A DNA stretch of 64,000 nt from Nitrospirota bacterium (GCA_963790025.1 CAWBMP010000005.1:416001-480000), one strand, 5' to 3'; counted from the stretch's first letter, positions 4,854 through 62,192 are shown. Notes: generated from the letters alone by a model not told the origin. Program-made: numbers and translations.

Positions 4854-5078
4854 ATGGACGGCTTACAGCACTTAGGGAAGTTATTGATTGTTATCGGCAT
4901 CGTCTGTGCCGCTGCCGGGGGGCTGCTGCTGCTTTCCGGAAAGGTCCCATGGCTCGGCAGGCTTCCAGGAGATATTATTTTACAGAGGAAAAATTTCACT
5001 TTTTATTTCCCTCTGGCGACCAGCATCATTGTAAGTATTCTATTGACGCTGTTATTCTGGATTATAGGTAAAAGATAA
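4854..5078 (+). CDS. DUF2905 family small membrane protein
   Basis: LGRLPGDI...FYFPLATSIIVSILLTL; typical ruvB-queA neighbourhood. Confidence 0.88.
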   Translation: MDGLQHLGKLLIVIGIVCAAAGGLLLLSGKVPWLGRLPGDIILQRKNFTFYFPLATSIIVSILLTLLFWIIGKR

Positions 5079-5208
5079 AAGGGTAAAAGGTTAATGGCTG
5101 AAGGCAAAAGGTTAAAAGTTAAAAAGTCACTAAACGAAAAAATAAAGAATTTATTTTTATTGTGCTCTTTACCCTTTTACCTTTTGTCTTTTACCCTTAG
5201 CCTTTCCT
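5067..5208. repeat. Heptamer-based inverted repeat (GGTAAAA)n...(TTTTACC)n
   Basis: About 8 degenerate left-arm units (5067-5123) and about 5 complementary right-arm units (5167-5208). Confidence 0.8.
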
Positions 5209-6152
5209 CTGTATCTTTTGCCCAACCCTGTATTCGTGTGCTCCTTGTCGATAACAAAAACGCAAGAATACCTCAAAAAGATGAGAAGGTTGAGAGGGTA
5301 GGCGGTACCAATGGAGAGGTGATCCTGAACGGAATGAAATACTCCGGCAATTTAGAGGTCTGGAAGAGCGATAAGGGACTCTACATTATCGACGAGATCA
5401 GCATGGAGGATTACGTTAAAGGCGTGGTGGCTGCCGAAGAAGGAGGTCAATGGGATATCGAGGCGCTAAAAGCACAGGCAGTTGCTGCGCGGACGTATGC
5501 GCTGCGCCAGTGGTTGGGCGGCGGAACGTCTAAAATGCCCTATAATCTTACTTCTACAGTCCTGCACCAGGCTTACAGGGGAAATAACATTCCCGAGCGG
5601 ATAGTAAAAGCGGTAGACGATACAAAAGGTGAAGTGCTTATGTATGAAGGTGCCCCTATCGTTGCCTACTATCACTCGACGAGCGGAGGGATGACCGAGG
5701 ACCCGCTTGAGGTTTTTGGAAAAGCCTATCCTTATTTAAAACCTGTGAAGACAAACTGCGAGCTGTCGCCATATTATATGTGGGAAAAGAGAATAGCGAC
5801 GGCAGATATCGAGAAGGTAATGAACGTATCCGGTCTGAAGGACATTATCATCGACTCATATACTGTTTCGAACCGCGTCAAGGTCTTCAGGCTTTTAACT
5901 GAAAATGGTGAAGTCGAAGTCCCCGGCCCGGATTTCAGAAAGAATATAGGCTGGGAACAGCTGCCAAGCACAATGATTACAAGTCTTAACAAGGACGGAA
6001 ATGTATATGTCTTTGAGGGAAAAGGTTACGGCCATGGTGTCGGAATGTGCCAGTGGTCCGCCCTTGAAATGGCAAAAGAGGGAAAGGATTACAGGGAGAT
6101 ACTCTCCACGTTTTATCCGGGTACTACTATTGGGGTCTATGAAGACCGCTGA
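5094..6152 (+). CDS. SpoIID/LytB domain protein (peptidoglycan lytic transglycosylase-like)
   Basis: EDYVKGVVAAE, EALKAQAVAARTYA, YHSTSGG, GYGHGVGMCQW; N-terminal signal peptide. Confidence 0.92.
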   Translation: MAEGKRLKVKKSLNEKIKNLFLLCSLPFYLLSFTLSLSSVSFAQPCIRVLLVDNKNARIPQKDEKVERVGGTNGEVILNGMKYSGNLEVWKSDKGLYIIDEISMEDYVKGVVAAEEGGQWDIEALKAQAVAARTYALRQWLGGGTSKMPYNLTSTVLHQAYRGNNIPERIVKAVDDTKGEVLMYEGAPIVAYYHSTSGGMTEDPLEVFGKAYPYLKPVKTNCELSPYYMWEKRIATADIEKVMNVSGLKDIIIDSYTVSNRVKVFRLLTENGEVEVPGPDFRKNIGWEQLPSTMITSLNKDGNVYVFEGKGYGHGVGMCQWSALEMAKEGKDYREILSTFYPGTTIGVYEDR

Positions 6153-7173
6153 TTTTTATTTTAATCTTCCCCAGGAACTGATTGCCTCACGGCCTTCCGA
6201 AAAGAGAGATTATTCACGACTGCTGGTCCTTCACAGAGATGGGTCTGTTGAGCATAAGCGCTTCTTCGAAATCTTGGACTATCTTGAAGAAGGCGACATG
6301 ATGCTCATGAACAATACCAAGGTATTTCCCGCGCGCATTATGGGGAAAAAGAAGGGAGGAAAGACGGTCGATATGCTGTTGGTCAGTGAAACGGCTGATA
6401 AAACAATATGGGAAATATTGTGCAGGGGCCATGCTGACGGTCCTGTAACCATTTTTGACGATGTTAATGCAGAGATTGAATCGCATTATTCAGGTAATAA
6501 AAACGAAAAAAAAAGATATCTGAAGATACCTGAAAGCGCTGTATCAGAACTGAACGACCTGTTCTGGAAATATGGATACATGCCGCTGCCTCCCTATATC
6601 AAGCGCATGCCTGAAGATGTTGACAAGGAGCGCTACCAGACAGTCTATGCCGAGAGGCAGGGCTCCATAGCTGCGCCGACTGCCGGACTTCATTTTACCA
6701 ATGAGCTTATACGGAAGATACAGGATAAAGGAGTATCTGTCAGGTTTTTGACATTGCATGTTGGGACGGGTACATTCAAGCCGGTGAGGGCCGAATCTTT
6801 GGAAGACCACCATATGGATGCTGAATATTTTGAACTGAATAAATCCATTATACAAGAACTGCGGCAGGTAAAGAAGAGCGGCAGAAAGCTTATATCAGTT
6901 GGCACCACAACAACCAGGGCACTCGAAAGCATTCAATTTGAGGATTCCCCGTGTCCGGACGTTATAAAGGGGACTACCGATATCTTTATTTATCCCGGGT
7001 ACAGCTTCAAGACAGTCGACTGTCTTCTCACTAATTTTCATCTGCCCAGTTCAACACCGATGATGCTCGTATCAGCATTAGCCGGATTTGGCAAAATAAC
7101 AAAGGCGTATAAGGAAGCTGTTGCTATGGATTATAGATTTTTCTCCTATGGTGATGCTATGCTAATTTTATGA
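6139..7173 (+). CDS. queA: S-adenosylmethionine:tRNA ribosyltransferase-isomerase
   Basis: MKTADFYFNLP, PLPPYI, AAPTAGLHF, VGTT, TNFHLP, YRFFSYGDAM; start moved to ATG 6139. Confidence 0.97.
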   Translation: MKTADFYFNLPQELIASRPSEKRDYSRLLVLHRDGSVEHKRFFEILDYLEEGDMMLMNNTKVFPARIMGKKKGGKTVDMLLVSETADKTIWEILCRGHADGPVTIFDDVNAEIESHYSGNKNEKKRYLKIPESAVSELNDLFWKYGYMPLPPYIKRMPEDVDKERYQTVYAERQGSIAAPTAGLHFTNELIRKIQDKGVSVRFLTLHVGTGTFKPVRAESLEDHHMDAEYFELNKSIIQELRQVKKSGRKLISVGTTTTRALESIQFEDSPCPDVIKGTTDIFIYPGYSFKTVDCLLTNFHLPSSTPMMLVSALAGFGKITKAYKEAVAMDYRFFSYGDAMLIL

Positions 7174-7967
7174 TAGGGAGGGGGCCGGAAAGATCATCAA
7201 TCTTACTGCTGGGCCGAAATTCAGTAGTTATTGGTGCGCTTCTCATCACCATAACCAGTTTCGGAGCAGGATATTTTTTTGGCTATAAGAGTAGTGAACC
7301 GTCAGAACAAGAGAAACAGGTTGCCGAGAGCTCGAGGCCGGGTGAAGTGGTCCCTCTCGGAGAGAAGCGGATTATCGAGGTTCCTGCTGCAAAAGATGTA
7401 GTGGTCAAGCAGTCTGCTGCCCCCCCTGTTTCCGGGAAGCCTTCTGATCCGATTGCCGAAGCCTCTGGGCATAAGTCACAGGAAGCGGCAGTTCTAAATG
7501 CAAAAGGGGAGACGTCCGGGAATAAACCTGATAAGTCCTCCATCGAACCTAAGAAAAGCGGGGTCGATGTTGCTGCAGCCGGAGCAAATAAGGTGCAGCA
7601 GGAAAATACTTCTGGACAATCTACCCAGGCTACTCAGGCTGCTCAGTCAGGAAATGCCGACTCCAAAAGCAGCAAGCAAGTACGCGAGAAGGCAGCAAAG
7701 AAGGCAAAGAAGGCAAAGAAGAGGGCTTCTACCGGTAAATTATACACAGTGCAATTGGGAGCGTTTCCAAATAAAGAAGGAGCGGAACAACTGTCTCAGC
7801 ATCTTAAGTCTAACGGCTATGCGCCTTACATTGTAAACGGAAACGGAAGCGACAGCTATTTCAAAGTGAGATTAGGGACCTTTAAGAGTAAAGAAGCAGC
7901 AGAAAAAAGTGCAGCGGCGCTTTTGAAAAAAACGGGATCGCAGAATTTTGTGACAGTGGCACAATAG
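7170..7967 (+). CDS. SPOR domain protein (FtsN/DedD-like)
   Basis: N-terminal TM, low-complexity linker, C-terminal YTVQLGAF...FKVRLGTF. Confidence 0.85.
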   Translation: MIGRGPERSSILLLGRNSVVIGALLITITSFGAGYFFGYKSSEPSEQEKQVAESSRPGEVVPLGEKRIIEVPAAKDVVVKQSAAPPVSGKPSDPIAEASGHKSQEAAVLNAKGETSGNKPDKSSIEPKKSGVDVAAAGANKVQQENTSGQSTQATQAAQSGNADSKSSKQVREKAAKKAKKAKKRASTGKLYTVQLGAFPNKEGAEQLSQHLKSNGYAPYIVNGNGSDSYFKVRLGTFKSKEAAEKSAAALLKKTGSQNFVTVAQ

Positions 7968-7995
7968 AGAATTCCCTCCAATGTCAGGAAATCCC

Positions 7996-8085
7996 AATGA
8001 GTTATAAGACATGAGTGAATGGGCTTTTAGAACGGGACCGCTTTGTCCATCAATACCCATTTGCCCATATGATCATTTACCCATA
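7996..8085. repeat. Octamer-based inverted repeat (ATGRGTRA)n...(TACCCATW)n
   Basis: atgagtgaatgggc ... tacccatt tgcccata tgatcatt tacccata; same unit as 37445-37548. Confidence 0.6.
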
Positions 8086-8096
8086 ATACTAAGAAA

Positions 8097-11775: not shown

Positions 11776-11792
11776 AGGTTAAGTGTTTGTTT

Positions 11793-21988: not shown

Positions 21989-22013
21989 AACGCCTCAGAC
22001 ATCATTTTACCAT

Positions 22014-22067
22014 AGTCAGCGGTCGGAGGTCAGATATCTGTATCCCTGTCCAGCCCCTGACCTTGAC
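22014..22067. repeat. Degenerate heptamer inverted repeat (GGTCAGA)n...(CTGACC)
   Basis: agtcagc ggtcgga ggtcaga ... cctgacc ttgac. Confidence 0.45.
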
Positions 22068-22081
22068 GATGTCATTGCATT

Positions 22082-23719
22082 ATGCTAAGTATTATATTAG
22101 TTATGCTGAAATGTACTTTTCTGCCATCATTTATGAAGACCGGGCCATCAGACTCTAAACTTGAGGAGAAGAGATCTTGCGGAGATTTTTTATTCCTGCT
22201 GCATTTTCTTCCGATATTCATGGTCCTTCTCGGCGCTGCATCCCCGGCCTGGGCCGTTGTCCAGGACAATACATTTGGAGCCAAAAACTTCTGGACTACG
22301 GAAAGGGTTGCCGCTTTTACGGCGTCACTATTGTTTATGACTGTCTGCATCATGATTTTGTGGCGATATCGGTCTTTACTCAAACTTAATCGGGAACTGA
22401 GAAGAAACATTGCCGAGCGCAAACAGGCAGAGGAGAAAATCTCCGAGCAGCGTGTGATCCTGGAACATATTTTGGAACAGTCTCTTGCCGGTTACTGGGA
22501 CTGGCGCAAGAAGGAGGGAATGGAATATTTCAGTCCTACATTCAAGAAAATGTTGGGTTATGAAGACCATGAACTGTCCAATATACCTGAAACATGGAGA
22601 AGGCTTATATTACCTGAAGATCTGCCCGGAGTTCATGAAGTATTCCGCAAGCATGTCGAAAGTCACGGAGTGGATCCTTTTTACAATGAGGTGAAATACC
22701 GGCATAAAAACGGTTCTGTAGTATGGGTCATATGTACCGGCACCGTCGTAGAATGGGATGAAGACGGACAACCGCTGCGAATGATAGGCTGTCATGTTGA
22801 TATAACCAGGCGCAAGAATCTCGAGGCGGAAATACAAAAGGCCCATGACGAATTGGAGCGTCGTGTAGGGGAGCGCACCCAGGAATTATCAGAACTGAAT
22901 GCTCAATTAAAAACAGAAATAGAGGTTCGCAGGCTTATGGAGGATGCGCTGTTGAGGTCTCATGAGGAACTGGAAAGAAGAGTTCAGGAGCGGACTTCTG
23001 AGCTTGCGGAAGCTAATATAATATTGGAAGATGAAATTGAGCATCGACGTCAGGCTGATGCGGCATTGACATTGAATCAAGTGCGCTTGCGGAACCTTTA
23101 TTTAAATCTGCAGTCCATGAGGGAGGAAGAACGGGCCAACATAGCCCGCGAAATACATGATGAACTAGGACAGATTATGACAGCAATAAAGATGGATATA
23201 GCATGGATCAAAGGAAAATATTGCGATCACGAATCTATTTGTAAAAAGACATCGGCAACTTTAAATCTCATTGATGCAACAATAAAATCGGTCAGGAGGA
23301 TATGCACGGAACTGAGGCCGGAAATACTGGACCATATGGGACTCGGTGCAGCAATTGAGTGGCAGGCCGAAGAATTCCAAAACCGGACCGGGATCCAATG
23401 CGAAGTCGCCGTGGAAGATGACCTTGCGATGGACAATGATCGCTCCACTGCTCTGTTCAGGATTTTTCAGGAGGCGCTGACAAATATCCTGCGCCATTCA
23501 AATGCTACAAAAATGACGGCAAGCCTGAAAAGCGGCGATGATAAAGTAATACTTCAAATCAGTGATAACGGCTCCGGAATTACCGAAGAGGAGATTTCAA
23601 AACCAGATTCATTCGGGCTTTTAGGCATGCATGAACGCGTCTTTCCATGGAGAGGAAGCGTAATTATCAGCGGCAGTCCAAACAAAGGCACCAGAATCGA
23701 AGTAACAATGCCAGTCTAA
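22082..23719 (+). CDS. PAS-domain sensor histidine kinase (HisKA_3, NarX/UhpB type)
   Basis: PAS/PAC (GYWDW, YRHKNGSVVWV, IGCHVDIT), IAREIHDELGQ, LRP, QEALTNILRHS, DNGSG; start uncertain. Confidence 0.9.
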   Translation: MLSIILVMLKCTFLPSFMKTGPSDSKLEEKRSCGDFLFLLHFLPIFMVLLGAASPAWAVVQDNTFGAKNFWTTERVAAFTASLLFMTVCIMILWRYRSLLKLNRELRRNIAERKQAEEKISEQRVILEHILEQSLAGYWDWRKKEGMEYFSPTFKKMLGYEDHELSNIPETWRRLILPEDLPGVHEVFRKHVESHGVDPFYNEVKYRHKNGSVVWVICTGTVVEWDEDGQPLRMIGCHVDITRRKNLEAEIQKAHDELERRVGERTQELSELNAQLKTEIEVRRLMEDALLRSHEELERRVQERTSELAEANIILEDEIEHRRQADAALTLNQVRLRNLYLNLQSMREEERANIAREIHDELGQIMTAIKMDIAWIKGKYCDHESICKKTSATLNLIDATIKSVRRICTELRPEILDHMGLGAAIEWQAEEFQNRTGIQCEVAVEDDLAMDNDRSTALFRIFQEALTNILRHSNATKMTASLKSGDDKVILQISDNGSGITEEEISKPDSFGLLGMHERVFPWRGSVIISGSPNKGTRIEVTMPV

Positions 23720-23806
23720 AGATAGGTAAAGATATAGGTTAAGAAAACTAATAGAGGCTTTGTTTAAACCTTCCTTTACCTCTGCCTATACCTTTACCTG
23801 TTTTAC
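23717..23806. repeat. Hexamer-based inverted repeat (AGGTAA)n...(TTACCT)n between convergent genes
   Basis: taaagataggtaaagatataggttaag ... ttacct ctgcct atacct ttacct; contains both stop codons. Confidence 0.6.
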
Positions 23807-24277: not shown

Positions 24278-24419
24278 TGCCCCTCCCATCCTCACCTTCT
24301 CCCTTTTGCAGCGTTTAAACCTATTACTGTACTATAATAAGATTATATTAATAATACAACCCATTCTATGTCTTTGCCTTTGACGTTGAACGCTGTAAGA
24401 TGAACGCTATAACGAGTTT

Positions 24420-30655: not shown

Positions 30656-32269
30656 CTAGTTATACCACTCGATGCGATTGCGGGGCACATACCAGTGTAT
30701 GAAATCGTAGTCTATTCCTATGGGTGCCTTTACTACGCCCTTGAAGCGTTTGTGCAGTACAAGAAGGGCATCGGGGACGTAGAGGAATGCATACGGTTGT
30801 TCTTCGGCGAGTATCTCGTGTATTCTGTGATAAATCTTTTTCCTTTTTTCCAAGGTAAAGGTGCGCCTGCCTGCTAGCAGTAACCGGTCAACTTCCTCAT
30901 TTTTGTAAGAGATGAAATTGAATTCCCCTTCTTTTGTTTTCGAGGAATGCCAAATGTCGTAGATATCAGGGTCTCTAGAGAGGGCCCAGCCCATAATAAT
31001 GGCTTCGAAACGTTTTTTATCGATAAATTCGTGCAGCATCGCCTGCCACTCGAGTACTTTTATGTGTAATTCTATACCGACCCGATTTAGTTGTTCTTTC
31101 AGTATCTGGGCAGTCTTGAGTCTCGCATCGTTACCCTGGGTTACAAGAACGGTGAAAGAAAATGTCCTGCCGTCTTTCTCTATCAGTCCCGATTTGTTCA
31201 TCCTCCATCCAGCTTCTGCAAGCAGTTCACGTGCCATGGCTGGGTTGTAGTCGTAATCCCTGACAGCCGGATTGTAGGCCCATGATTCAGGGGGGAAGGG
31301 GCCGGTACAGGGAGTTCCGTATCCTAATAGCACCCCGGCTATAATCTCTTTTTTGTTGATTGCATGAGCTATTGCCTGCCTTACACGCACGTCCTTGAAA
31401 AGTGGGTCGAGCAGATTGTATCCCATATATGTGTATCCGAAGGAGGGATACCTGAACTTCTGAAAAAACCTATTGAAGAATGCATTGTTTACCTGAAGTT
31501 TATATTGAGGCGGAGTTACACCCATGAAATCGATGCCGCCGAATTTCAGCTCTAAAAACATCGTCGAAGAATCGGGAATTACGCGAAACAGCACTCTGTC
31601 GATATTCGGTCTTCCTTCGAAGTAATGATCGAAGGCAGTGAGTATGATTTTTTGTCCGGTCACCCATTCGGCAAGCCGGTATGGGCCGTTCCCGGTTGGG
31701 TTCCGGTTTATTTCAGGAGACGAAAGGTCCTTTCCCTCAAGAAGGTGCTTTGGCACGATCCCCATGCCCCAGGATTCTAATGCAGGGGCAAAAGGTTCCT
31801 TGTAAATTACTTTGACCGTATATTTGTCGGGAGCCTCAACGCTCTTAACGGGTCCGTAGATGCTGCTATACGGTGTCGGCACTGATGGATCGATAACTTT
31901 ATTGTAGGTAAAAACAACGTCATCAGCGGTGAGTTCCGTTCCATCATGCCACTTGATACCCTTGTGGAGATGAAAGATTATCTGCAGACCGTCAGGACTT
32001 ACTTCCCATGACTCGGCAAGGTCACCGGTCAGCCTGATATTTTTGTCATACTTTACCAGTCCGTGATAGATAAATCCGCTTATTTCTCCAGATGCGCTGT
32101 CCGAGGCAAGGAATGGAAGAAGCCTTTTGGCATCGGCACCCAAGCCCATTGTAATGGCATTCGGGTATTTGATCTCGGGCTCGCGGGAACAAGAGGAAAA
32201 AAAAGTTAATAGTGACAGTGTCAGCAGAACAAAATTATTTCTTAAAATTCCTGTACCGGTCTTTTTCAT
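30656..32269 (-). CDS. ABC peptide-binding lipoprotein (SBP family 5, AppA/OppA-like)
   Basis: Lipobox FSSC, GDLAESWEVS, WHDG..LTADDV, GNGPY, DVRVRQAI; no cognate permeases adjacent. Confidence 0.92.
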   Translation of the reverse strand: MKKTGTGILRNNFVLLTLSLLTFFSSCSREPEIKYPNAITMGLGADAKRLLPFLASDSASGEISGFIYHGLVKYDKNIRLTGDLAESWEVSPDGLQIIFHLHKGIKWHDGTELTADDVVFTYNKVIDPSVPTPYSSIYGPVKSVEAPDKYTVKVIYKEPFAPALESWGMGIVPKHLLEGKDLSSPEINRNPTGNGPYRLAEWVTGQKIILTAFDHYFEGRPNIDRVLFRVIPDSSTMFLELKFGGIDFMGVTPPQYKLQVNNAFFNRFFQKFRYPSFGYTYMGYNLLDPLFKDVRVRQAIAHAINKKEIIAGVLLGYGTPCTGPFPPESWAYNPAVRDYDYNPAMARELLAEAGWRMNKSGLIEKDGRTFSFTVLVTQGNDARLKTAQILKEQLNRVGIELHIKVLEWQAMLHEFIDKKRFEAIIMGWALSRDPDIYDIWHSSKTKEGEFNFISYKNEEVDRLLLAGRRTFTLEKRKKIYHRIHEILAEEQPYAFLYVPDALLVLHKRFKGVVKAPIGIDYDFIHWYVPRNRIEWYN

Positions 32270-32300
32270 CCCTGACACTTAGCACTGCAACCGACACTTA
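32204..32300. repeat. Degenerate AGTGTCAG/CTGACACT inverted element spanning the secG stop and the lipoprotein signal peptide
   Basis: agtgtcag 32217-32224 versus ctgacact 32272-32279 and ccgacact 32291-32298. Confidence 0.5.
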
Positions 32301-37444: not shown

Positions 37445-37548
37445 AATGAGTGGGTGAATAAGAAGGTGAGTATATGAGTGAATGGGTGAATAGAAGTTTT
37501 TTATTACTGTTTTACTCATATACTCTTTTACCCATTTACTCATATACT
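37445..37548. repeat. Octamer-based inverted repeat between the convergent porin and kinase genes
   Basis: gtgagtat atgagtga atgggtga ... tactcata tactcttt tacccatt tactcata; includes the kinase stop codon. Confidence 0.75.
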
Positions 37549-38928
37549 TTTTGATCGAGTAAATATTACTTTAACAGAGGTCCCCTTGCCTTCCTTCGGC
37601 TCATTAATAAAAATACCGGCATTATGCTTTATGGCAATTTCCCTGGCTATTGCCAGTCCGAGTCCGCTTCCCTCAATATCGTTTCGCGGACCGCGCCTCA
37701 GGATACGATAGAACCGCTCAAAAACCCGTTTTTTTTCGTTTTCCGGGATTCCCGGTCCGTTATCCTCAACTATTAAACTGATGTTGTCCTGCACTTCTAC
37801 TTTTAACGTCACAACGCTGCCGAAAGGGCTGTAACGGATTGCATTGTCCACCAAGTTGTCAATCATCATTTTCAGCCGCAGGATGTCTCCCCGTATCATA
37901 GCTTTTTCGCCTGAGCAGCTAAAACCAAGGTCAATATTCTTTCTCAATGCCTCAGGGACCCATTCGTTGGCAATTTCGCGGGAAAAAATAATCAGATCCA
38001 ACTCCTTCAGGTCATTAACCGCATCAGAGTTAGGCTCCACCTGCGCCAGCGCCAGCATCTGCTTAATAAGGCGGGAGGAACGATTGACGCTTATGCTGAT
38101 CTGCTGCAGTGAATGCCTTATGTGTTCCGGATCGGCTTCCTGCAAAGCCACATCGAGTTGGGTCTTTAACCCCGTAAGGGGAGTACGCAATTGGTGGGCT
38201 GCATCGTTGATAAAACGCCGTTGCATTTGCAGGGCGTCATCCAACCGCTGTAAAAGATCGTTGACAGCCTGGGCCACCGGAAGCATTTCCAGAGGCGTAT
38301 GGCTTTCCTCGATAGGGGTCAAATCACGATGAGAGCGTGCGGCTATCTCGTCGCGCATGCGATGCAGCGGCTCTAATCCCGTCCGCACGCCCAACCAAAC
38401 TATTGTCGCAGCTATCAGGATCAGCACAAGTTGGGGAAGCACCATTGCAGTGATGATCTCTCTCTGCAGAATAGCACGCTTATTCAGGGTTTCGGCTATT
38501 TGCACCAGTACAGGTTGCCCCGCAATAGCGAAATAGCGTGAGGCGATGCGCAGTTTATGCCCCTGCATAGAACCGTAGTGCATAATGGGTGGGCCGAATG
38601 TGACCGGAGCTTCAGGCATGAGGAGGCCGGGCTCTCCTGCTATCAGCTTTCCACTGAGGTCCGAAACCTTGAAATAAATCTTATCGTATTCATCTGTCAG
38701 GAGCATCTCCACGGCAGCTCGTGGAAGGTCCAGTCTTATTTGACTGCCGACGACTGTTATCTGTTTCGATATGTCGCCGGTGAAATCAGCCAGGGCGCGA
38801 TCATAGGCGATATTCGAGAACTTTGTTGCCAGGTGATAAGCTATTGCCGCCCCTATCAGCCACAAAAACAGCAGCGGCAGGAGCAGCCAAATAAGAAGTT
38901 TGCGACGCAGTGACGTAGGCTTATGCAT
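37540..38928 (-). CDS. Sensor histidine kinase (QseC/TctE-like)
   Basis: Two TM segments, HAMP, AAHQLRTPL, NLVDNAIRYS, DNGPGI, GSGLGL. Confidence 0.93.
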   Translation of the reverse strand: MHKPTSLRRKLLIWLLLPLLFLWLIGAAIAYHLATKFSNIAYDRALADFTGDISKQITVVGSQIRLDLPRAAVEMLLTDEYDKIYFKVSDLSGKLIAGEPGLLMPEAPVTFGPPIMHYGSMQGHKLRIASRYFAIAGQPVLVQIAETLNKRAILQREIITAMVLPQLVLILIAATIVWLGVRTGLEPLHRMRDEIAARSHRDLTPIEESHTPLEMLPVAQAVNDLLQRLDDALQMQRRFINDAAHQLRTPLTGLKTQLDVALQEADPEHIRHSLQQISISVNRSSRLIKQMLALAQVEPNSDAVNDLKELDLIIFSREIANEWVPEALRKNIDLGFSCSGEKAMIRGDILRLKMMIDNLVDNAIRYSPFGSVVTLKVEVQDNISLIVEDNGPGIPENEKKRVFERFYRILRRGPRNDIEGSGLGLAIAREIAIKHNAGIFINEPKEGKGTSVKVIFTRSKSI

Positions 38929-43900: not shown

Positions 43901-44145
43901 GCGGAGACATGCCCGTGGACGCTATGTTCCACGCCGCATTGACCCGTATGCGGCCGCTGCTGATGACGAGCCTCTCAGCCTGCATAGGGCTGTTACCGGC
44001 AGCAATTTCCAGGGGCATCGGCAGCGAGGTGCAGCGCCCGCTCGCTACTGTAATCGTCGGCGGTATGTTTATCGGCCCGATCATGCTGCTCGTTGTTGTG
44101 CCTGCGCTCAAAATGGTGTTCCTGGGAAAAACAAGTGAAAAGTGA
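40942..44145 (+). pseudogene. CzcA/CusA-family heavy-metal RND transporter, system 1, interrupted by at least 5 frameshifts (possibly sequence errors)
   Basis: AVDFGIIVDSAVILVEN and RMRPLLMT; CzcA homology hops frames at ~42310, 42440, 42680, 42967 and 43066. Confidence 0.8.
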
Positions 44146-44263
44146 GAGGTAAAAAGTGAAAAGTGAAAACAAAAAAAATAAAAAGCCGGAACTGGTAAGT
44201 GATCAGTCTAATTCTTTGCTTGTCAATTGTTGCTTTTCACTTTTAACTTTTAACTTCTTACTT
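44133..44263. repeat. Heptamer-based inverted repeat (AAGTGAA)n...(TTTTMAC)n
   Basis: 5 left units (44133-44167) and 4 right units (44234-44261). Confidence 0.8.
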
Positions 44264-45700
44264 GTCTTCGGTTGCGCCTTGGGTCCCGACTTCCGCAGGC
44301 CGACCTTACCTGCCATCGACGGTTATACGCCTCAGCCGCTGACTGCGACATCATCTGCTGCCGACCTGGCAAGCGGCGAGAGACAGCGATTTGCGATGGG
44401 TACGGACATTCCGCAACAGTGGTGGGCATTGTTTAAGTCGCCGGAGCTCAACGCGCTGGTCGAAAAATCGCTCAAGGCCAACCCGACGATAGACGCAGCG
44501 AAGGCAGCCTTGCGTCAGGCCCGGGAGAACGTCTATGCCCAGCAGGGCTATTACTATCCTTCAGTCCAGGCGGGTGCTTCAGTCAGCCGTGCAAAGGACC
44601 CGGGCACTATTGCGCCGGTATTGAGTTCAGGGGAAGAACCCTACAATCTCCGTACTGCACAGGTGAGTGTGGGCTTCACACCTGACGTGTTCGGCGGCAA
44701 CCGGCGGCAGGTGGAATCCCTGAATGCCCAGGCCGATTTTCAACGCTTCCAGCTCGAGGCGACTTATCTTGCGCTGACTTCGAACGTGGTTGCCGCGGCC
44801 ATCCAGGAAGCTTCATTGCGCTCTCAGATTTCCGCTACTCTCGACATCATCAAGGTCGAAACTGTGATGGTAGATCAGCTGCGCCGACAGTTCGATCTCG
44901 GGTATGTTGCCGGGCTCGATGTGGCTGTGCAGGAAGCGGCCCTTGCCCAGGTGCAGCAAACCTTGCCGCTACTGCAGAAGCAACTGGCACAAACTCGCGA
45001 TTTGCTTGCGGCCCTTGCCGGCACTTTCCCGAACCAGGAACTCGATGAAAAGTTCGAGCTCGAGGCGCTTAGCCTTCCCCAGGAACTTCCCGTCAGCCTT
45101 CCCTCCAGGCTGGTGGAGCAAAGGCCTGACGTGCGCGCTGCCGAGGAGCAAATGCATGCTGCCAGCGCCCAGGTCGGAGTTGCAGTCGCCGCTATGCTGC
45201 CGAATATCACCCTGAGCGCCAATTTGGGCAGCACCGCCACTATTATTAATAAATTGTTTACGCCGGGCACCGGCTTCTGGGGCCTGGCCGCCGATATCAC
45301 TCAACCTGTCTTCGAGGGGGGCACGTTGCTGCACAGGAAACGGGCCGCTGAAGCGGGCCTGGATCAGGCTGAGGCGCAGTACCGCAGCACGGTCATCGCC
45401 GCCTTCCAAAACGTGGCGGACACGCTGCATGCGCTCCAATCCGATGCCGATGCCCTGAAAGCTGCCGAAGCTTTCGAACAGGCCACGAGGCGGAGCCTCG
45501 ACCTTGCACGCCGGCAATTCGAACTTGGCTACGTTAATTACTTATCATTTCTTTCCGCCGAGCAGACTTACCAGCAGGCAGTGATCAATACAGTACAGGC
45601 CCAGGCCAACCGTTATGCAGACACTGCAGCTTTATTTATGGCGCTCGGCGGCGGCTGGTGGAACCGGTCCGATAAACCCGGCGCGGAATCAAGGCAATAA
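44156..45700 (+). CDS. RND outer-membrane lipoprotein (NodT/OprM family)
   Basis: Lipobox VFGC-ALGPDF, WWALF, RPDVRAAE, ALGGGW. Confidence 0.92.
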   Translation: MKSENKKNKKPELVSDQSNSLLVNCCFSLLTFNFLLVFGCALGPDFRRPTLPAIDGYTPQPLTATSSAADLASGERQRFAMGTDIPQQWWALFKSPELNALVEKSLKANPTIDAAKAALRQARENVYAQQGYYYPSVQAGASVSRAKDPGTIAPVLSSGEEPYNLRTAQVSVGFTPDVFGGNRRQVESLNAQADFQRFQLEATYLALTSNVVAAAIQEASLRSQISATLDIIKVETVMVDQLRRQFDLGYVAGLDVAVQEAALAQVQQTLPLLQKQLAQTRDLLAALAGTFPNQELDEKFELEALSLPQELPVSLPSRLVEQRPDVRAAEEQMHAASAQVGVAVAAMLPNITLSANLGSTATIINKLFTPGTGFWGLAADITQPVFEGGTLLHRKRAAEAGLDQAEAQYRSTVIAAFQNVADTLHALQSDADALKAAEAFEQATRRSLDLARRQFELGYVNYLSFLSAEQTYQQAVINTVQAQANRYADTAALFMALGGGWWNRSDKPGAESRQ

Positions 45701-53978: not shown

Positions 53979-54346
53979 TGTTCAGGTTTATTAGAACAAT
54001 TCTTCGTTTGTTTGTGGCAGCGCTGATTATCTTTTTTGCCTTCTCCATGTGGAAGGGCGGCGGGGAATTCAGGTGGTTCGGGGAGAAACTGGGTGAGAAG
54101 GCCGACGAGATCAAGTTAAAAAAAGATGAAGCCGTTGAAAAGATAAAAAAATTGACAGGCATGGGAGTCCCCGAAAAGTCACAGACTTTTAATAAACATC
54201 ATGTCAAAACGGATGAAACTTCGAAGAAAAAGACAAAAGAGACCGACCCTGAAGTTGTCGGGGGAGGCAGTGATGAAAATAAGCCGTCAGAAAGTTTATG
54301 GGACACTATATGGAAAAAGATGAAAGCGCTGATGCAAAAGGCTTAA
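53975..54346 (+). CDS. Hypothetical membrane-anchored protein inserted between lolE and lolD
   Basis: ATGA overlap; N-terminal TM; Lys/Glu-rich. Confidence 0.7.
   Translation: MMFRFIRTILRLFVAALIIFFAFSMWKGGGEFRWFGEKLGEKADEIKLKKDEAVEKIKKLTGMGVPEKSQTFNKHHVKTDETSKKKTKETDPEVVGGGSDENKPSESLWDTIWKKMKALMQKA
54163..54190 (-). repeat. In-frame palindromic element, copy 2 (reverse orientation)
   Basis: Reverse complement AAAAGTCTGTGACTTTTCGGGGACTCCC. Confidence 0.65.
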
Positions 54347-54457
54347 CCACAGAGTTCACAGAGGAAAGAATCAGAGCAGCGAGAGGAATAAATATCATTA
54401 AAAAGAATAAGCTTCTCTGTGAACTCTTTTTTCTGAAACTCAGTGTTCTCTGTGGTT
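54345..54457. repeat. MITE-like nonamer palindrome AACCACAGAG...CTCTGTGGTT
   Basis: Perfect 10 bp terminal inverted repeats with internal CACAGAG/CTCTGTG units. Confidence 0.8.
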
Positions 54458-54496
54458 CATATTTTTTTGCAAAAGACACAAAGGAGTAGCTGCCGG

Positions 54497-55593: not shown

Positions 55594-55938
55594 ATGAGGA
55601 ATGATAATGTTGTCAAGGTCGGGGCAGTTTTTTTGATGGGGGGTGCAATCGGCGCGGCCATTGCACTGCTTTATGCACCTCAGTCGGGCCCGGAGACGAG
55701 AAAGGACATCAAGCGGACGGCAAGGCGGGTGAAGAACGAGGCCGTCGACCTCGTCGAGGAAACCATAGACAGCGTCGATGATTTCGTGGATGAAACGAAA
55801 GACAGGGTTACAGAACTCATTGACAGGAGCATCGAGCTTTCGGGAGCTGCAAAAAAGGAGATCATCAAGACTCTGGAGCATGGACAGAAGGCCATCGAGA
55901 AACAGAAGAACAGGGTTATTGAGGCCATTGGTCTGTAA
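55594..55938 (+). CDS. YtxH domain protein
   Basis: GGAIGAAIALLYAPQSGPETR; SD AGGAGG. Confidence 0.88.
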   Translation: MRNDNVVKVGAVFLMGGAIGAAIALLYAPQSGPETRKDIKRTARRVKNEAVDLVEETIDSVDDFVDETKDRVTELIDRSIELSGAAKKEIIKTLEHGQKAIEKQKNRVIEAIGL

Positions 55939-56012
55939 ACCGTGCCCTATGATCCGATAATATCAAACTCCTTTTCTTAACTCGAATTCAACAAGCCTCG
56001 GGATCATCTCAG

Positions 56013-56053
56013 GTTCAGCAACAGCGGCGCTACTGAAACCGCTGTTGCTGAAC
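56013..56053. repeat. Perfect 15 bp stem-loop
   Basis: GTTCAGCAACAGCGG-11 nt-CCGCTGTTGCTGAAC. Confidence 0.8.
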
Positions 56054-56315
56054 TCGAAAAGCAATAGCCCGATGAGTATTCTGAGAAATGATGACAGGGT
56101 GACGGACATTTCCGAAGAATATATCTTACTAACTTCTTGCATAAGATCATTGTTGTGGTTATTTTATATTGATTTATTTAAGTTGCGTTTTGTAACCAAG
56201 CTGCTATATTATTCAACATTATTCTTGATAAAATGGTATTGAACAGCAGATAATAAGCCTTAATTTGGTGGAGGCTACTTTTTTTAAAGAATAATAATGA
56301 TTTGGAGGAAGTTTA

Positions 56316-58283: not shown

Positions 58284-58341
58284 TTAGATGGCAAGATGTC
58301 CCGATTTGTGAAAAAAAAGGGGATGTGATAAACTCTTCAGC

Positions 58342-58770
58342 ATGCCGGGTGAAGAAAGAAGAAATTCAAGACGAATAGCCGTCGGTTTTCCTGCAACGAT
58401 CAGATCAGGAAGCAGGTGTTATGAGGGATATTTAACCGATGTATCCGAGCACGGGATTGGCTACGTAATAACCTCACTGATTCAGTCTGCAGAGGTCTAT
58501 TTCCCAAAGCGTTTTGATGATGCAGAGCACTCAATCGGCTCTTTAAAATCGATAGCAGATGATTTCGCTTCGGGAAAAATTATTGAACTCAGTTTCACTA
58601 TTCCTTCCGGCGATAAAGTTGATTTAAAGTGCAGCCTGGCATGGTTCCTGGATGACGCATCAAAGAGTAATGCGACCATAGGTATGAGAATTACAGATAA
58701 TTCCCCGGCATTCTTACAATTGATGAAAGATCTGGACGAAGAGCAAAGCGGCTTCTCCCGAGGCAAGTAA
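58342..58770 (+). CDS. PilZ-domain protein
   Basis: ERRNSRR (RxxxR) and DVSEHG (DxSxxG). Confidence 0.8.
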   Translation: MPGEERRNSRRIAVGFPATIRSGSRCYEGYLTDVSEHGIGYVITSLIQSAEVYFPKRFDDAEHSIGSLKSIADDFASGKIIELSFTIPSGDKVDLKCSLAWFLDDASKSNATIGMRITDNSPAFLQLMKDLDEEQSGFSRGK

Positions 58771-58840
58771 GTACTCATCTATTGAATAGATAGTTATAGA
58801 TGGGTTATCATACTAAGCTATTATTTTTGGAGGAGTTGCC

Positions 58841-60733
58841 ATTAAAATTTTATTGCCTGACGGCTCGGAAAAAGTAGTTGAGAAGTCCGAGCTGCAAAAA
58901 CATATCGAAGCATCTCGCGCTTTCGGAATTAGGGTGAATGGAGAGTTCAGGGATTTGGCATCTCTCGATACCTTGCCTCCAGAAGCTGTTGTCGAACCAA
59001 TCACCTTTAATTCGAAAGAAGGAAAGGACATATACCGCCACAGCGCATCTCATATCATGGCCCATGCCGTAAAGGAATTGTTCCCAGGGGTCAAATTCGC
59101 CATAGGTCCCTCCATAGAAGAAGGTTTTTATTACGACCTCGAAAGTGCGGAACACTTTGCCCCCGAGGACCTCGAAAAGATTGAAAAAAAGATGAAGGAG
59201 ATTATCAAGCGGAACAACCCCTTTGTCAGAAAGGAGGTTGCGAGGGATGAAGCTATAGAGCTTTTCAGGAAAATGGATGAGCCATACAAGGTCGAGCTGC
59301 TTCAGGAGATCCCGGATGCTGCGGTCTCTTTGTATGAAGAAGGAGGGTTTGTTGACCTCTGCAGAGGGCCGCACCTGCCGAAGACCGGAAGAGTGAAGGC
59401 ATTCAAACTGTTGAGTATTGCGGGGGCTTACTGGCGCGGCAACGAAAAGAACAAAATGCTCCAGAGGATATACGGAACTGCTTTTGACACGAAGGAGGAG
59501 CTCAAGTCCTATCTCGATTTCCTTGAAGAAGTGAAGAAGCGGGACCACCGGAAGCTCGGTAAAGAGCTCGATCTTTTCAGCATAAGCGACGATATAGGTC
59601 CTGGCCTCATACTTTGGCACCCTAATGGCGCAATTATAAGAAAAACGATAGAGGACTTCTGGAGGGACGAGCATGTCAAGGCCGATTATAAACTCCTCTT
59701 TTCTCCCCACATTGCCCGGTTGCATTTATGGCAGGAGAGCGGTCACTGGGACTTTTACAGGGAAAATATGTACTCCCCCATGGAGATCGAAGAGATTGCC
59801 TATGAGTTGAAGCCGATGAATTGTCCTTTTCACATTGCTATCTATAAAAGTATGCTCAGGAGTTACCGGAATTTGCCGCTGCGATATGCGGAACTCGGCA
59901 CGGTATACCGCTACGAAAGGTCAGGAACGCTCCACGGTCTTATGCGGGTCAGGGGCTTCACGCAGGATGACGCGCATATTTTCTGCAGAGAGGACCAGAT
60001 CGAGGAGGAAATTGTAAATGTTCTCGATCTAACGCTCTTTGTTCTGAAGACCTTCGGGTTCGACTCATATGACATATATCTTTCTACCAGACCCGAAAAA
60101 TATGTGGGGGCGGTTGAAAACTGGGAGAGCGCAACGAATGCCCTGAAGCACGCGCTTGAGAAAAAAGGGTTGCCGTATGCCGTGGACCCGGGCGAGGGGG
60201 TTTTCTATGGCCCCAAGATAGATATAAAAATAAAGGACTCGCTCAACAGATCGTGGCAGTGCAGCACTATACAGGTTGATTTTAATCTTCCCGAACGGTT
60301 CGATACCGTATATCGCGGGACCGACGGCAAAGAACAAAGGCCGATAATGATCCACCGTGCATTGATGGGATCACTGGAGCGTTTTTTCGGCATCCTTATC
60401 GAACACCACGCCGGAATTTTCCCGCTTTGGCTTTCTCCTGTGCAGGTGTCGGTTTTGACAATTGCGGAAAGACATGAAGCCTATGCCGGGCAGGTATACG
60501 GGGAACTTAAAGGCGTGGGCATAAGGGCTGAACTGAATGCCGATAATGAGAAAATAGGGTACAAGATCCGTGAGGCCACGATGAGAAAAGTGTCGTATTT
60601 GATTATAATAGGGGATAAGGAAGTTGAGGACCGGACAATTACGGTGAGAAAACGGAACGGCGATAATATCGGGCCATTTACAACCGGAGAGTTTATAGCC
60701 ATAATAGAAGAAGAAGTAAAAAGTAAAAAGTAA
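58841..60733 (+). CDS. thrS: Threonyl-tRNA synthetase (probable ATT start)
   Basis: IKILLPDGS, HSASH, DLCRGPH, RDHRKLG, KPMNCP, STIQVDF, HRALMGS; SD GGAGG 7 nt before in-frame ATT 58841. Confidence 0.97.
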   Translation: MKILLPDGSEKVVEKSELQKHIEASRAFGIRVNGEFRDLASLDTLPPEAVVEPITFNSKEGKDIYRHSASHIMAHAVKELFPGVKFAIGPSIEEGFYYDLESAEHFAPEDLEKIEKKMKEIIKRNNPFVRKEVARDEAIELFRKMDEPYKVELLQEIPDAAVSLYEEGGFVDLCRGPHLPKTGRVKAFKLLSIAGAYWRGNEKNKMLQRIYGTAFDTKEELKSYLDFLEEVKKRDHRKLGKELDLFSISDDIGPGLILWHPNGAIIRKTIEDFWRDEHVKADYKLLFSPHIARLHLWQESGHWDFYRENMYSPMEIEEIAYELKPMNCPFHIAIYKSMLRSYRNLPLRYAELGTVYRYERSGTLHGLMRVRGFTQDDAHIFCREDQIEEEIVNVLDLTLFVLKTFGFDSYDIYLSTRPEKYVGAVENWESATNALKHALEKKGLPYAVDPGEGVFYGPKIDIKIKDSLNRSWQCSTIQVDFNLPERFDTVYRGTDGKEQRPIMIHRALMGSLERFFGILIEHHAGIFPLWLSPVQVSVLTIAERHEAYAGQVYGELKGVGIRAELNADNEKIGYKIREATMRKVSYLIIIGDKEVEDRTITVRKRNGDNIGPFTTGEFIAIIEEEVKSKK

Positions 60734-60802
60734 AAAGTGACAGACATGTAGGCGATAAGCGGTAAGCGGCAAAAACGTATTTTTACTTTTTACTTTTTAC
60801 TT
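60714..60802. repeat. Heptamer inverted repeat (AAGTAAA)3-4...(TTTTTAC)3 with a nested (GCGRYAA)3
   Basis: Read directly from the sequence; contains the thrS stop codon. Confidence 0.85.
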
Positions 60803-60823
60803 AATTCTTTAGGAGGTGAGAAC

Positions 60824-61324
60824 ATAAGCAAGGACATCAGAGTTAATGAAGGTATCAGGACAAGAGAAGTGCGGTTGATCGGCGGAATGGGAGAACAGCT
60901 TGGCGTGGTGTCAATACAGGAAGCGCTGAGGATATCAAGGGAAAGCGGTTACGACCTTGTTGAGGTTGCCCCTAATGCTACACCGCCGGTGTGCAGGGTG
61001 ATGGACTTCGGCAAGTATAAGTACCAAATGAGCAAAAAACATACTGCACGAAAGACCGCTGACCTTAAAGAAGTGAAGATCAGGCCCCAAATAACCGAGC
61101 ACGATCTGGAACTCAAAGTCAAGAACATCAGGCGTTTTCTTGATGAAGGAGATAAAGCCAAGGTTACCATGTTTTTCAGGGGACGGGAAATCGTGAGACC
61201 GGAAATGGGTATGAAAGTATTTGAGAAAATTACTGTGTTGCTTACGGGGAAATATAATGTCGAACAGCAACCCAAGCTGGAAGGCAATCATATTACGATG
61301 GTGATCACCCCCAGTACAAAATAA
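60824..61324 (+). CDS. infC: Translation initiation factor IF-3 (ATA start)
   Basis: SD AGGAGGTGA then in-frame ATA-AGC-AAG ([17 protein letters not shown]); [21 protein letters not shown]. Confidence 0.96.
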
Positions 61325-61349
61325 AAAGCGAAGGAGAGGAGGGAATTCA

Positions 61350-61550
61350 ATGCCAAAGATGAAAACTCACAGGGGCGCTGCGAAGCGTTTTAAAGTGACC
61401 GGCAGCGGGAAGATAAAGAGGAGCAAGGCTTTTAAGGGTCATCTTTTGACGGGCAAGTCTTCCAAAAGGGGCAGGAACCTCAGGAAAAGTACTTTAGTAC
61501 CTGAAGTGCAGTACGATAATGTTAAAAAACTTCTGCCGTATTCGTTTTAA
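61350..61550 (+). CDS. rpmI: 50S ribosomal protein L35
   Basis: [21 protein letters not shown]. Confidence 0.97.
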
Positions 61551-61554
61551 AGCA

Positions 61555-61641
61555 CGTTCAGCGTACAGCGTTCTCCGCAAGAGAAATGAATAATACGGGT
61601 TTTTGCTTTGCCGTTAACGCTGAACGCTGAACGCCTTACGC
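61555..61641. repeat. Heptamer inverted repeat (CGTTCAG)n...(TGAACGC)n
   Basis: cgttcag cgtacag cgttctc ... ttaacgc tgaacgc tgaacgc; the same unit occurs at 24380-24407. Confidence 0.75.
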
Positions 61642-61733
61642 GTTTTTTCCTTGACGCTTTGGTGCCGGATTAATTAAAATGTATGCTCTTAAATTGAAGT
61701 AATAAGTTTTTCAGTACAGTTAAGGAGGATAAG

Positions 61734-62087
61734 ATGCCGAGGGCAAAAGGTGGCTTTAAGGCCAAACGATATCATAAGAAGGTTCTTGATAATGCAAAGG
61801 GGTATTATGGCGCGAGAAGCCGTTTATACCGCATTGCGACGCAAGTTGTCGACAAGGCCCTAATTGCTGCATATAAGGACAGGAGACTTAAAAAACGGGA
61901 ATTCAGGGCACTCTGGATAGCGCGAATCAATGCAGCGGTCAGGTCTCTGAACATGCCTTACGGTCAATTTATGAACGGTTTAAAAAAGGCCAATGTCAAT
62001 TTGAACAGAAAGGCCCTTGCCGATCTCGCTTGTAATGACTTCGAGAACTTTAGCAAACTTGTCGAGCAAGTTAAAAGCAGCAAGTAA
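61734..62087 (+). CDS. rplT: 50S ribosomal protein L20
   Basis: [39 protein letters not shown]. Confidence 0.97.
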
Positions 62088-62089
62088 TA

Positions 62090-62192
62090 AAAGCAGGCAG
62101 TAAGCAGTACGCAGTAGGCAGCCAAAGGATAAAGTGTTAACTTGTAGTTTTCTCTCTATGCTGCTTACTCCTTACAGCTTACTGCCTGCTTT
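62090..62192. repeat. Heptamer inverted repeat (GCAGTAA)n...(TTACTGC)n
   Basis: Perfect 16 bp outer arms AAAGCAGGCAGTAAGC / GCTTACTGCCTGCTTT. Confidence 0.8.

Follow-up and report, generated by a model that had tools for sequence, protein, structure and literature searches.

Inverted tandem-repeat hairpins at gene borders of a Nitrospirota bacterium as probable gene-less copies of a four-helix-bundle gene cassette

MITEs are defined by target-site duplication and by uniform copies with a cognate transposase, and the STRRs of cyanobacteria by short tandemly repeated heptamers in intergenic DNA. An intervening sequence (IVS) of rRNA sits inside a 16S or 23S gene in place of a small helix loop, and RNase III removes it from the RNA, the fragments staying unjoined. 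The known system that comes closest to the elements described here is the ORF-bearing IVS of 23S rRNA rather than the STRR, to which there is a resemblance only. According to the accessible part of the published account, the helix-45 23S IVS of Coxiella burnetii carries an S23p ORF, tandem heptamers precede this gene, and the first repeat is where RNase III cleaves (PMC4990558). For the heptamer arrays of cyanobacteria and Beggiatoaceae, which in Maribeggiatoa comprise 169 direct sets and a single inverted one, a role in regulation has been proposed; the available portions of these reports neither identify a binding protein nor draw a link to an enclosed gene (PMC4679880; bioRxiv 2022.06.06.494920). 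In the literature covered, with most subscription journals outside it, an arm-flanked gene cassette of the kind considered below is described only inside rRNA, and none was found elsewhere.

We analysed a stretch of 64,000 nt from a Nitrospirota bacterium (GCA_963790025.1, CAWBMP010000005.1:416001-480000), hereafter the window, in which coordinates without a C prefix are counted. A first-pass annotation had listed palindromes of short tandem units at 14 places, and the units named were present at all 14 (Table 1). Its contacts with stop codons (DUF2905, the distal czcA piece, thrS, secG, both kinases and the lolE-lolD insert) were also correct, while the element at 22014 lies between divergent starts and touches no stop. 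Nine full two-armed elements exceeded the genome-wide threshold (5067, 7996, 23717, 37445, 44133, 54345, 60714, 61555 and 62090); in 8/9 the fold has a z of −2.9 to −7.3 against dinucleotide shuffles, the exception being 7996, and the complementary termini thus form a long stem, as in IVSs. The element at 4814, though short, is complete; decay is evident at 22014 and 32204, 3167 consists of little more than a left arm, and 24380 of a right arm alone. Rfam covariance models gave only two plant miRNA models in the window (E 0.28 and 0.48) and no family match, Gut-1 included. A consensus scan of 53000-64000 for rho-independent terminators, whose short GC-rich stems carry a small loop and end in a U tract, gave 8 sites where 11.2 were expected. 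It listed none of this region's four full hairpins whole, and one sub-site fell at the edge of 61555.

Table 1. Hairpin elements of the window, their surroundings, and the corresponding junctions in related genomes
Position	Element	Placement and reading	Fold z	Orthologous junction
3165..3191	half element, AGGYAA left arm; clear right arm absent	last codons of ruvA	0	congeners: other units or no arm
4818..4849	short complete AGGYAA hairpin	within last codons of queH	−2.3	nine genus genomes: about six unit types and one bare allele
5067..5209	GGYWAAA hairpin	contains DUF2905 stop; loop and right arm read as signal peptide of SpoIID/LytB protein (start 5094)	−4.4	element in G005, G007; absent from G002, G003, G004, G006, G008, G009
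7996..8084	ATGRGTRA octamer hairpin	between SPOR gene and phoH	−1.1	bare in G003, G006, G007; GCGTTCA type in G008; CACAGAG type in G004
22011..22071	decayed GAGGTCA/AGAGGTT-type hairpin; right arm below threshold	between divergent genes	−2.0	hairpin not seen in G007
23717..23805	AGGTAA hairpin, unit family of the arms of the genome's two four-helix-bundle genes	between convergent stops of kinase and 169-aa ORF	−5.3	different unit in G007
24380..24413	half element, GCGTTCA-type arm	just past recG stop		
32204..32300	decayed AGTGTC hairpin	at secG stop; minus strand reads as lipoprotein signal peptide of ABC substrate-binding protein		GCAGTAA type in G003, G007; GTGAAT type in G002, G006, G008
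37446..37551	ATGRGTRA hairpin	between convergent oprB and kinase stops	−7.2	not found within the relatives' stretches compared
44130..44265	AAGTRAA hairpin	contains stop of distal czcA piece; reads as lipoprotein signal peptide of NodT (start 44156)	−7.3	
54345..54456	CACAGAG nonamer hairpin, unit family also surrounding GxxExxY (PF13366) genes in relatives	just upstream of old stop of lolE-lolD insert		bare in 5/5 aligned congeners
60707..60809	AAGTAAA hairpin; loop with units of another type	at thrS stop	−5.6	congeners: other units or none
61555..61634	GCGTTCA hairpin	past rpmI stop, upstream of promoter-like site for rplT (61651-61680)		bare in G005, G007
62090..62192	GCAGTAA hairpin	between rplT and pheS	−6.1	congeners: other units

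Such elements are commoner in the genome than chance would give, since tandem arrays no more than 150 nt apart formed 138 inverted pairs (vs. 8 mirror, 35 complement-only and 19 direct), and inverted pairs at 150-1500 nt numbered only 5-13 per bin. A unit-profile scan of the whole genome found 269 hairpins with units of 6-9 nt, belonging to 13 unit families, ten of which have 10-64 copies. The arm order is fixed (301 pairs against 4 in the opposite order), and beyond the closest range profile-based arm pairs amount to 3-6 per further 170-nt bin. The units therefore form shared families, so that the annotation's notion of a structure-defined element with unshared sequence is not supported: membership of sequence families is what defines the elements, and the presence of these families follows that of a protein clade. 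Its notion of a non-autonomous mobile element is supported by bare, empty and gene-bearing alleles at the same junctions. Tandem heptamers occur among the units, but 6-, 8- and 9-mers do so too, and the arrays stand in inverted pairs.

The ORF-enclosing form that the annotation had envisaged exists in this genome, outside the window. Arms of AGGTWA, the commonest empty family (64/269), flank each of the genome's two PF05635 genes, which belong to TIGR02436/PF05635 and match 2GSC with an E of 4e-17. We know of no catalytic activity in this four-helix-bundle family. By a strict exact-word test, inverted tandem arms flank four-helix-bundle genes at 60 of 110 sampled loci and are seen at 2 of 462 host genes of similar length, and the four-helix-bundle gene is co-oriented with both neighbours in 48/52 called contexts. 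For other units of the window, 25/45 and 3/3 matches to gene-bearing patterns enclose a four-helix-bundle gene. The gene-bearing AAGTAAA/GCAGTAA pattern occurs at 45 loci in all genomes and in 0/401 genomes of the phylum, and cyanobacterial contigs are among the gene-bearing matches. CACAGAG arms were seen at 2 of the 7 GxxExxY loci listed, and a GxxExxY gene was not found in this genome, where an intact cognate gene is lacking for 12 of the 13 hairpin families. In different phyla the AAGTAAA unit surrounds members of several protein clades, so that the specificity of unit and protein may be looser than one-to-one. No transposase lay between the arms in the long arm pairs inspected.

The likeness to ORF-bearing IVSs, as far as the accessible text describes them (PMC4990558), extends to the protein family (TIGR02436, PF05635), to complementary ends that bear tandem heptamers, to a sporadic distribution with reductive ORF loss, and to the copies found here within 23S rRNA. 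Some IVSs carry an S23p/TIGR02436 ORF, and here there are two arm-flanked genes and one relic. The 14 elements of the window lie at protein-gene borders, and two sister copies with the same arms interrupt both 23S rRNA genes of this genome; the helix near position 279 is expanded in 16/26 23S copies, by differing units, two of them within one genome. The elements here differ from IVSs in several respects: the rRNA insert sits near position 280 rather than at helices 9, 25 or 45, gene-less copies at the borders of mRNAs and tRNAs number in the hundreds, one genome has 13 unit families, and units are swapped at one site.

REPIN-RAYT systems, in the available parts of their descriptions, also combine one or two repeat-flanked genes with hundreds of gene-less inverted doublets bearing a spacer, favour gene ends and tandem or convergent junctions, and pair each repeat group with a specific protein, but a REPIN pairs two inverted REP palindromes of 20-40 bp that mostly bear a GTAG/CGTC tag, whereas the arms here are tandem 6-9-mers without that tag (PMC3116915, PMC3733652). 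The doublets here are over-represented, extragenic and hairpin-forming as in REPINs, and the flanked genes are TIGR02436 or PF13366 and not a RAYT tyrosine transposase. Unlike MITEs, the elements have mostly unique loops and flanking direct repeats at the level of the shuffled null, with the caveat that their ends are fuzzy and that old duplications could be lost at the distance of the nearest compared relative (~82% identical). Dispersed identical free copies are absent from this genome. Seven identical hairpins in genome G027 were rejected as free MITEs, as they ride within a larger repeat of ~140-200 bp; a follow-up pattern matched in 0/68 genomes, its gap being too short for this count to carry weight. 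The automatic count of nested elements was 0, yet one nested case is visible at C5:553475. With heptamer arrays, in the portions of the accounts available, the elements share short tandem units beside start and stop codons and a patchy distribution across phyla, those arrays, however, being direct repeats (PMC4679880; bioRxiv 2022.06.06.494920). The Avd protein of DGRs has a homologous pentameric four-helix-bundle fold, according to the accessible text (PMC6182149, PMC10053308). The match to NF033474 (Avd) is weak (E 5e-6, far below the model cut-off), arms are missing from L073, the only Avd-like locus in the sample, and, unlike DGRs, in which Avd lies next to a reverse transcriptase and a template repeat, this 98.8% complete genome contains no PF00078 reverse transcriptase.

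Comparison of orthologous junctions showed gain, loss and unit swapping, the relatives' junctions being filled, empty with another unit, or bare. Among 50 gene-bearing loci tested, 11 (10 junctions) were collinear with this genome, where six of these junctions are bare, two are empty with another unit, one holds a relic and one is filled. In the relic (C2:471161) the first ~30 codons of the four-helix-bundle gene are fused to its last few; the loop still matches the family profile (E 9e-9), and the gene is intact at that junction in two congeners (G002 and G009). Loops align at a score of at least 34 in 42/1744 same-family pairs vs. 3/1744 shuffled and 42/12117 cross-family pairs, which suggests that empty hairpins are copied together with their loops.

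The match of unit to protein was followed across 68 genomes of the family with the strict hexamer pattern AGGYWD, the matching protein clade being set at 55% identity or more, which gave exactly 8/68 carriers. AGGYWD hairpins were found in 8/8 carriers (4-116 matches) vs. 10/60 other genomes, though the genomes are kin and the Fisher p (~6e-6) therefore overstates the significance. In two genera the lone carrier has 44 and 10 matches, and its sister genomes have 0. GTGAAW hairpins occur in 5/5 carriers vs. 3/63 others. A third unit fits only in part: one carrier (G007) leads with 85, but another (G009) has just 4, below four non-carrier congeners. Against the match also stand two non-carriers, G004 and G001, with 43 and 21 hexamer matches.

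Taken together, these results lead us, on balance, to read the hairpins as gene-less copies of an arm-flanked small-gene cassette, likely spreading non-autonomously while a unit-matched protein is present. The full cassette would consist of a TIGR02436/PF05635 gene, or a GxxExxY gene for the CACAGAG unit, between inverted arrays of one 6-9-nt unit. The protein of this gene likely spreads empty hairpins of its own repeat type in trans: a pentamer related to Avd would recognise its own unit arrays, and the transcript may be cut at the hairpin, probably by RNase III, as in rRNA IVSs; the RNase III gene rnc is present in the genome. We propose that hairpins persist at the borders of functional RNAs (stops, starts, tRNA ends, a variable rRNA helix) because the transcript can be cut there, and also because most arms supply stop codons. 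As to copying, it is possible, though doubtful, that the protein binds the excised hairpin RNA and that a reverse transcriptase working in trans copies it; we narrowly favour this over protein-guided DNA recombination between the arms, which appears slightly less probable still. Counted against our reading are the missing target duplication and reverse transcriptase, the families without a cognate gene, the non-carriers with hexamer matches, the only partly fitting third test, the several protein clades flanked by AAGTAAA, the lack of dispersed identical free copies and of any known catalytic activity, and a sense strand with no surplus of G·U pairs (266 vs. 243, p 0.33). Sense-strand preference was only 107 vs. 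81 for arm duplexes (p 0.07), though 118/190 for whole elements.

The filled and empty alleles at one junction, together with the one clear relic, would also be expected if the gene-bearing cassette were the sole mobile unit and each hairpin a remnant left after deletion of the gene between its arms, which would likewise make units track resident genes. We think this unlikely, as just 1 of 204 loops resembles any of the 110 sampled genes, hexamer loops are no closer to the ends of cognate cassettes than other loops are (likeness 20.1 vs. 20.1), so that most loops were rejected as remnants of a resident cassette, and unlinked empty hairpins share loop lineages.

Equally improbable, in our estimate, is that the hairpins are RNA signals serving the host, whether as bidirectional terminators, as 3′ stabilisers or as RNase III sites. 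Selection would then maintain them without active mobility, and the four-helix-bundle protein would bind RNA to regulate both its own flanks and the empty sites. Their placement speaks for such a role: convergent junctions are enriched (48/345 vs. 190/2446 tandem junctions, p 3e-4), arms begin −30 to +15 nt from the upstream stop in 154/190 tandem cases, A-rich outer flanks give U tails in both directions, junctions are reused, and ~16/180 hairpins, judged by eye, read as signal peptides. It does not account for the 22 hairpins between divergent starts and the two in 23S rRNA, for core operons in which bare alleles are common, for the lack of a G·U bias, or for the unit at shared junctions, which differs in 11/11 cases vs. 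five congeners and in 4/11 vs. G007, swaps that point mutation could hardly produce.

Less probable again is passive spread, in which hairpins and cassettes would move only when flanking host DNA recombines homologously between lineages or when like arms undergo gene conversion, the protein being a hitchhiker. It fails to predict that one unit floods the carrier of the matching protein while sister genomes hold none, or that hairpins arrive for the first time at bare junctions, even though it fits the two rRNA operons of G004, which differ in unit and helix base, the single hairpin common to both tuf copies, and the horizontal movement of IVSs reported in the accessible text (PMC4990558). Origin de novo, in which slippage during replication and template switching would produce the hairpins and no underlying element exists, is already disfavoured and very improbable: unit copy number does vary between arms, and heptamer slippage is discussed for other bacteria in the available part of one report (PMC4679880), but the units form a closed set of 13 in one fixed order, the same kinds of arm surround one gene family in many phyla, and arms are not inverted duplications of each other, own arms pairing no better than those of other family members (132/259).

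More tentatively than the cassette reading itself, we suggest that such elements may form a widespread class, in which a small protein, either a non-catalytic pentamer resembling Avd or a GxxExxY protein with a nuclease fold, recognises its own unit and drives gene-less hairpins to be copied into RNA borders throughout the genome, where they overwrite older hairpins; IVSs and heptamer repeats would then be two faces of one parasite, which supplies stops and new signal peptides. The cassette reading joins three puzzles, namely the origin of IVSs, the role of the common "four helix bundle protein", and the hundreds of heptamer repeats in some bacteria. The match of unit to protein names a candidate ligand for a protein with a solved structure but no known function, and, if mobilisation in trans is true, this would be a REPIN-like system run by a protein without a transposase fold. 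The elements also reshape the proteins of their host, to which they provide stop codons and, in this genome, about 16 signal peptides as judged by eye.

The Nitrospirota genome (3.45 Mb, five contigs C1-C5, 98.8% complete) was scanned, irrespective of unit family, for inverted pairs of tandem 6-9-nt arrays. The scan revealed 138 inverted pairs at spacings of up to 150 nt, compared to 8 control pairs in mirror, 35 in complement-only and 19 in direct arrangement, and 5-13 inverted pairs per bin at longer spacings. Unit profiles trained on these pairs and run genome-wide gave 301 pairs in one arm order vs. 4 in the reverse order and, after merging, 269 elements (262 with an extended profile set) of 13 families, with a median length of 91 bp and a loop G+C of 34%; the purine-richer arm leads in 115 of 127 pairs. 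The first-pass annotation had assigned units to 14 places of the window, C5:416001-480000, whose gene content is ordinary housekeeping, and all 14 are present. The architecture ascribed to them is complete, above the genome-wide threshold, in nine elements, while the rest are short (4814), decayed (22014, 32204) or half elements (3167, 24380). The impression that the units are unshared was an effect of the small window, as they fall into the 13 shared families.

Gene contexts came from our own simple gene caller, which misplaces some starts. Elements occupy 190 of 2446 junctions between tandem genes, 48 of 345 between convergent ones and 22 of 342 between divergent ones, and nine lie inside called genes; convergent junctions are enriched (p 3e-4), and divergent ones show no depletion (p 0.45). 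The suspected proximity to stop codons was borne out: for 154 of 190 tandem cases, the arm begins at -30 to +15 nt relative to the upstream stop. Where at least 120 bases are free (n = 32), contact with the stop persists in 13 cases, 7 elements are close to the next start, and 12 are at neither place. Most units contain stop codons, and an arm blocks on average 1.5-2.6 reading frames in eight families and less than one frame in the other five families. The next ORF is able to start inside the element in 33 of 180 tandem cases. About 16 elements, judged by eye, read as signal peptides, including those of SpoIID and NodT in the window, and the decayed element 32204 likewise reads by eye as that of an ABC binding protein. 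Furthermore, 14 of 49 tRNA genes have an element within ~40 nt, and an element also occurs in both 23S genes, near position 280-380. The C2 rRNA operon includes tRNA-Ile and tRNA-Ala, next to which hairpins lie; the spacer of the C4 operon is 84 nt long and lacks tRNAs, and the C4 23S gene is identical to the C2 copy.

Copies enclosing a small ORF, which the first-pass annotation had suggested as an autonomous form, do exist: the genome's two four-helix-bundle genes (TIGR02436/PF05635), whose products resemble 2GSC and 2RLD, each lie between AGGTWA arms. Among 110 four-helix-bundle loci fetched from relatives, with some partial matches left out, a strict exact-word test found inverted tandem arms at 60, the two resident genes included, vs. 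2 of 462 host genes similar in length and 6% of pairings obtained by shuffling; imperfect arms are visible by eye at several loci that the test missed. In 48 of 52 called contexts, the gene and the neighbours on both sides point in one direction, and in a quick tree the units cluster by clade within this family. Pattern scans covered window units lacking a gene in this genome: AAGTAAA/GCAGTAA arm pairs from many phyla enclose a four-helix-bundle gene in 25 of 45 cases (24 flagged, and locus L311 by coordinates), and GCGTTCA pairs in 3 of 3, two of which enclose the same protein. Of the 7 GxxExxY loci (PF13366) listed from 9 fetched, 2 are flanked by CACAGAG arms. No cassette with the exact ATGRGTRA unit turned up; related octamers did. 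In the relative G003, one four-helix-bundle protein (L072, contig C104) has the right arm translated as a long Asp-Thr repeat tail, and an Avd-like four-helix-bundle gene without arms (L073, contig C5) adjoins an apparent DGR template repeat.

The comparison of orthologous junctions revealed filled, empty, bare and relic alleles, in line with the occupied and vacant sites anticipated for a mobile element. Of 50 gene-bearing loci tested, 11 are collinear in this genome, at 10 junctions, of which 6 are bare, 2 hold an empty element of another unit, 1 is filled and 1 is a relic. The relic, the only one of 204 loops to match the four-helix-bundle family, fuses the gene start to the last codons, and the gene is intact at the same junction in G002 and G009. 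Across nine genomes of the genus, the queH-DUF2905 junction varies, with roughly six different units and a single bare allele; element 54345 is bare in all five congeners aligned, and element 7996 in three, with other units in the remaining ones. A comparison with 460 kb of G007 showed 11 junctions with an element in both genomes, 18 with one only here, 5 with one only in G007 and 154 with none in either, and the unit differs at 4 of the 11 occupied in both. In stretches of five further congeners it differs in 11 of 11 cases of joint occupancy, junctions being counted more than once. Of 26 copies of the 23S helix from 18 genomes, 10 are plain and 16 expanded; the helix is plain in G001, and the two operons of G004 hold different units. 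The 23S of G016 has an extra hexamer insert near position 1226, which we take to be the helix-45 site.

Among the 68 family genomes, which are kin and thus non-independent, and several incomplete, the clade of the resident gene occurs in exactly 8 (55-74% identity; next matches at most 44%), one copy being broken. Strict hexamer hairpins were found in 8 of 8 carriers vs. 10 of 60 non-carriers, the latter including G004 and G001 (43 and 21 matches, overlapping ones counted). Within the genera g19 and g10 they are confined to the carrier, and in g8 the carrier has 12 matches vs. 4-9 in four sisters, on the same count. GTGAAW hairpins, with carriers defined by the arms of their own genes, occur in 5 of 5 carriers vs. 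3 of 63 others, and not in the genome under study. For GGCDAA, carrier G007 is highest (85), and carrier G009 (4) ranks below G004, G002, G005 and the present genome. Since one unit flanks several protein clades across phyla, the match of unit to protein need not reflect a strict code.

An element's own arms pair no better than those of other family members (132 of 259), and the arms therefore act like arrays of a degenerate site that are independent of each other. Loops fall into lineages: pairs scoring at least 34 numbered 42 of 1744 within families vs. 3 after shuffling, a count inflated by leftover units and a nested palindrome; a plain loop lineage is seen in four unlinked GCAGTAA copies. 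The loops of hexamer hairpins show no resemblance to the ends of cassettes. Loops are enriched for AAGTCT/AGACTT and related words (23 of 223, with 4.4 expected), possibly a shared recognition word. The sense strand folds better in 118 of 190 whole elements (arms alone, 107 vs. 81), with no G·U strand bias, and RNase III is present. No target duplication was found at element flanks, and no reverse transcriptase (PF00078) match in the genome.

Identical hairpins in G027 were rejected as free copies, being passengers of a larger dispersed repeat (~140-200 bp, locus-specific outer stem, conserved core), at least seven G027 copies of which hold a hexamer hairpin in one loop. Its G002 and G006 copies have a different loop in the core; it has no Rfam match and was not found in the genome under study. 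A small GC-rich REP-like palindrome is nested in five GCAGTAA loops, and another palindrome in G007 loops. In the window, an in-frame stop divides the first RND permease of CzcA/CusA type into two ORFs, the first piece running ~230 residues past its profile match. LolD matches TIGR02211 in two stretches around a ~25-residue insert containing a short tandem repeat. A 123-aa ORF between lolE and lolD matches nothing in Pfam or NCBIfam and contains a hydrophobic N-terminal stretch; in congeners there is sequence with a similar end before lolD.

Coordinates of individual features
Feature	Sequence	Position
Relic	C2	471161
Nested REP-like palindrome	C2	665553
Nested REP-like palindrome	C2	722370
Nested REP-like palindrome	C4	110925
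Nested REP-like palindrome	C4	925209
Nested REP-like palindrome	C5	127834
Dispersed repeat	L249-L255 (G027)	
Dispersed repeat	L213 (G006)	80-230
Dispersed repeat	L216 (G002)	7880-8040
CzcA/CusA, first ORF	window	40942-42921
CzcA/CusA, second ORF	window	42925-44145
123-aa ORF	window	53975-54346
LolD	window	54497-55243
Tandem repeat of LolD insert	window	54874-54897

In the accessible text of PMC4990558, Coxiella 23S rRNA's intervening sequence (IVS) carries a four-helix-bundle gene preceded by tandem heptamers, RNase III cuts at the first heptamer, and the idea that the IVS ORF aids mobility is cited. Heptamer repeats are treated as direct and regulatory in the portions available of PMC4679880 and bioRxiv 2022.06.06.494920, and the part available of PMC2864571 holds nothing further on repeats. 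Avd, a pentameric, positively charged reverse transcriptase partner, resembles PF05635 (PMC6182149 and PMC10053308, in part). Our literature search found no published description of the cassette outside rRNA. REPINs, as far as described in the portions of PMC3116915 and PMC3733652 available, served as a working analogy, but their palindrome, tag and RAYT features fail for the hairpins here. By this analogy, the cassette appears to operate in the manner of REPINs without being one of them. The hairpins are a real family, the gene-less members of an IVS-like cassette. That the cognate protein mobilises them in trans is the preferred reading and a somewhat probable one.
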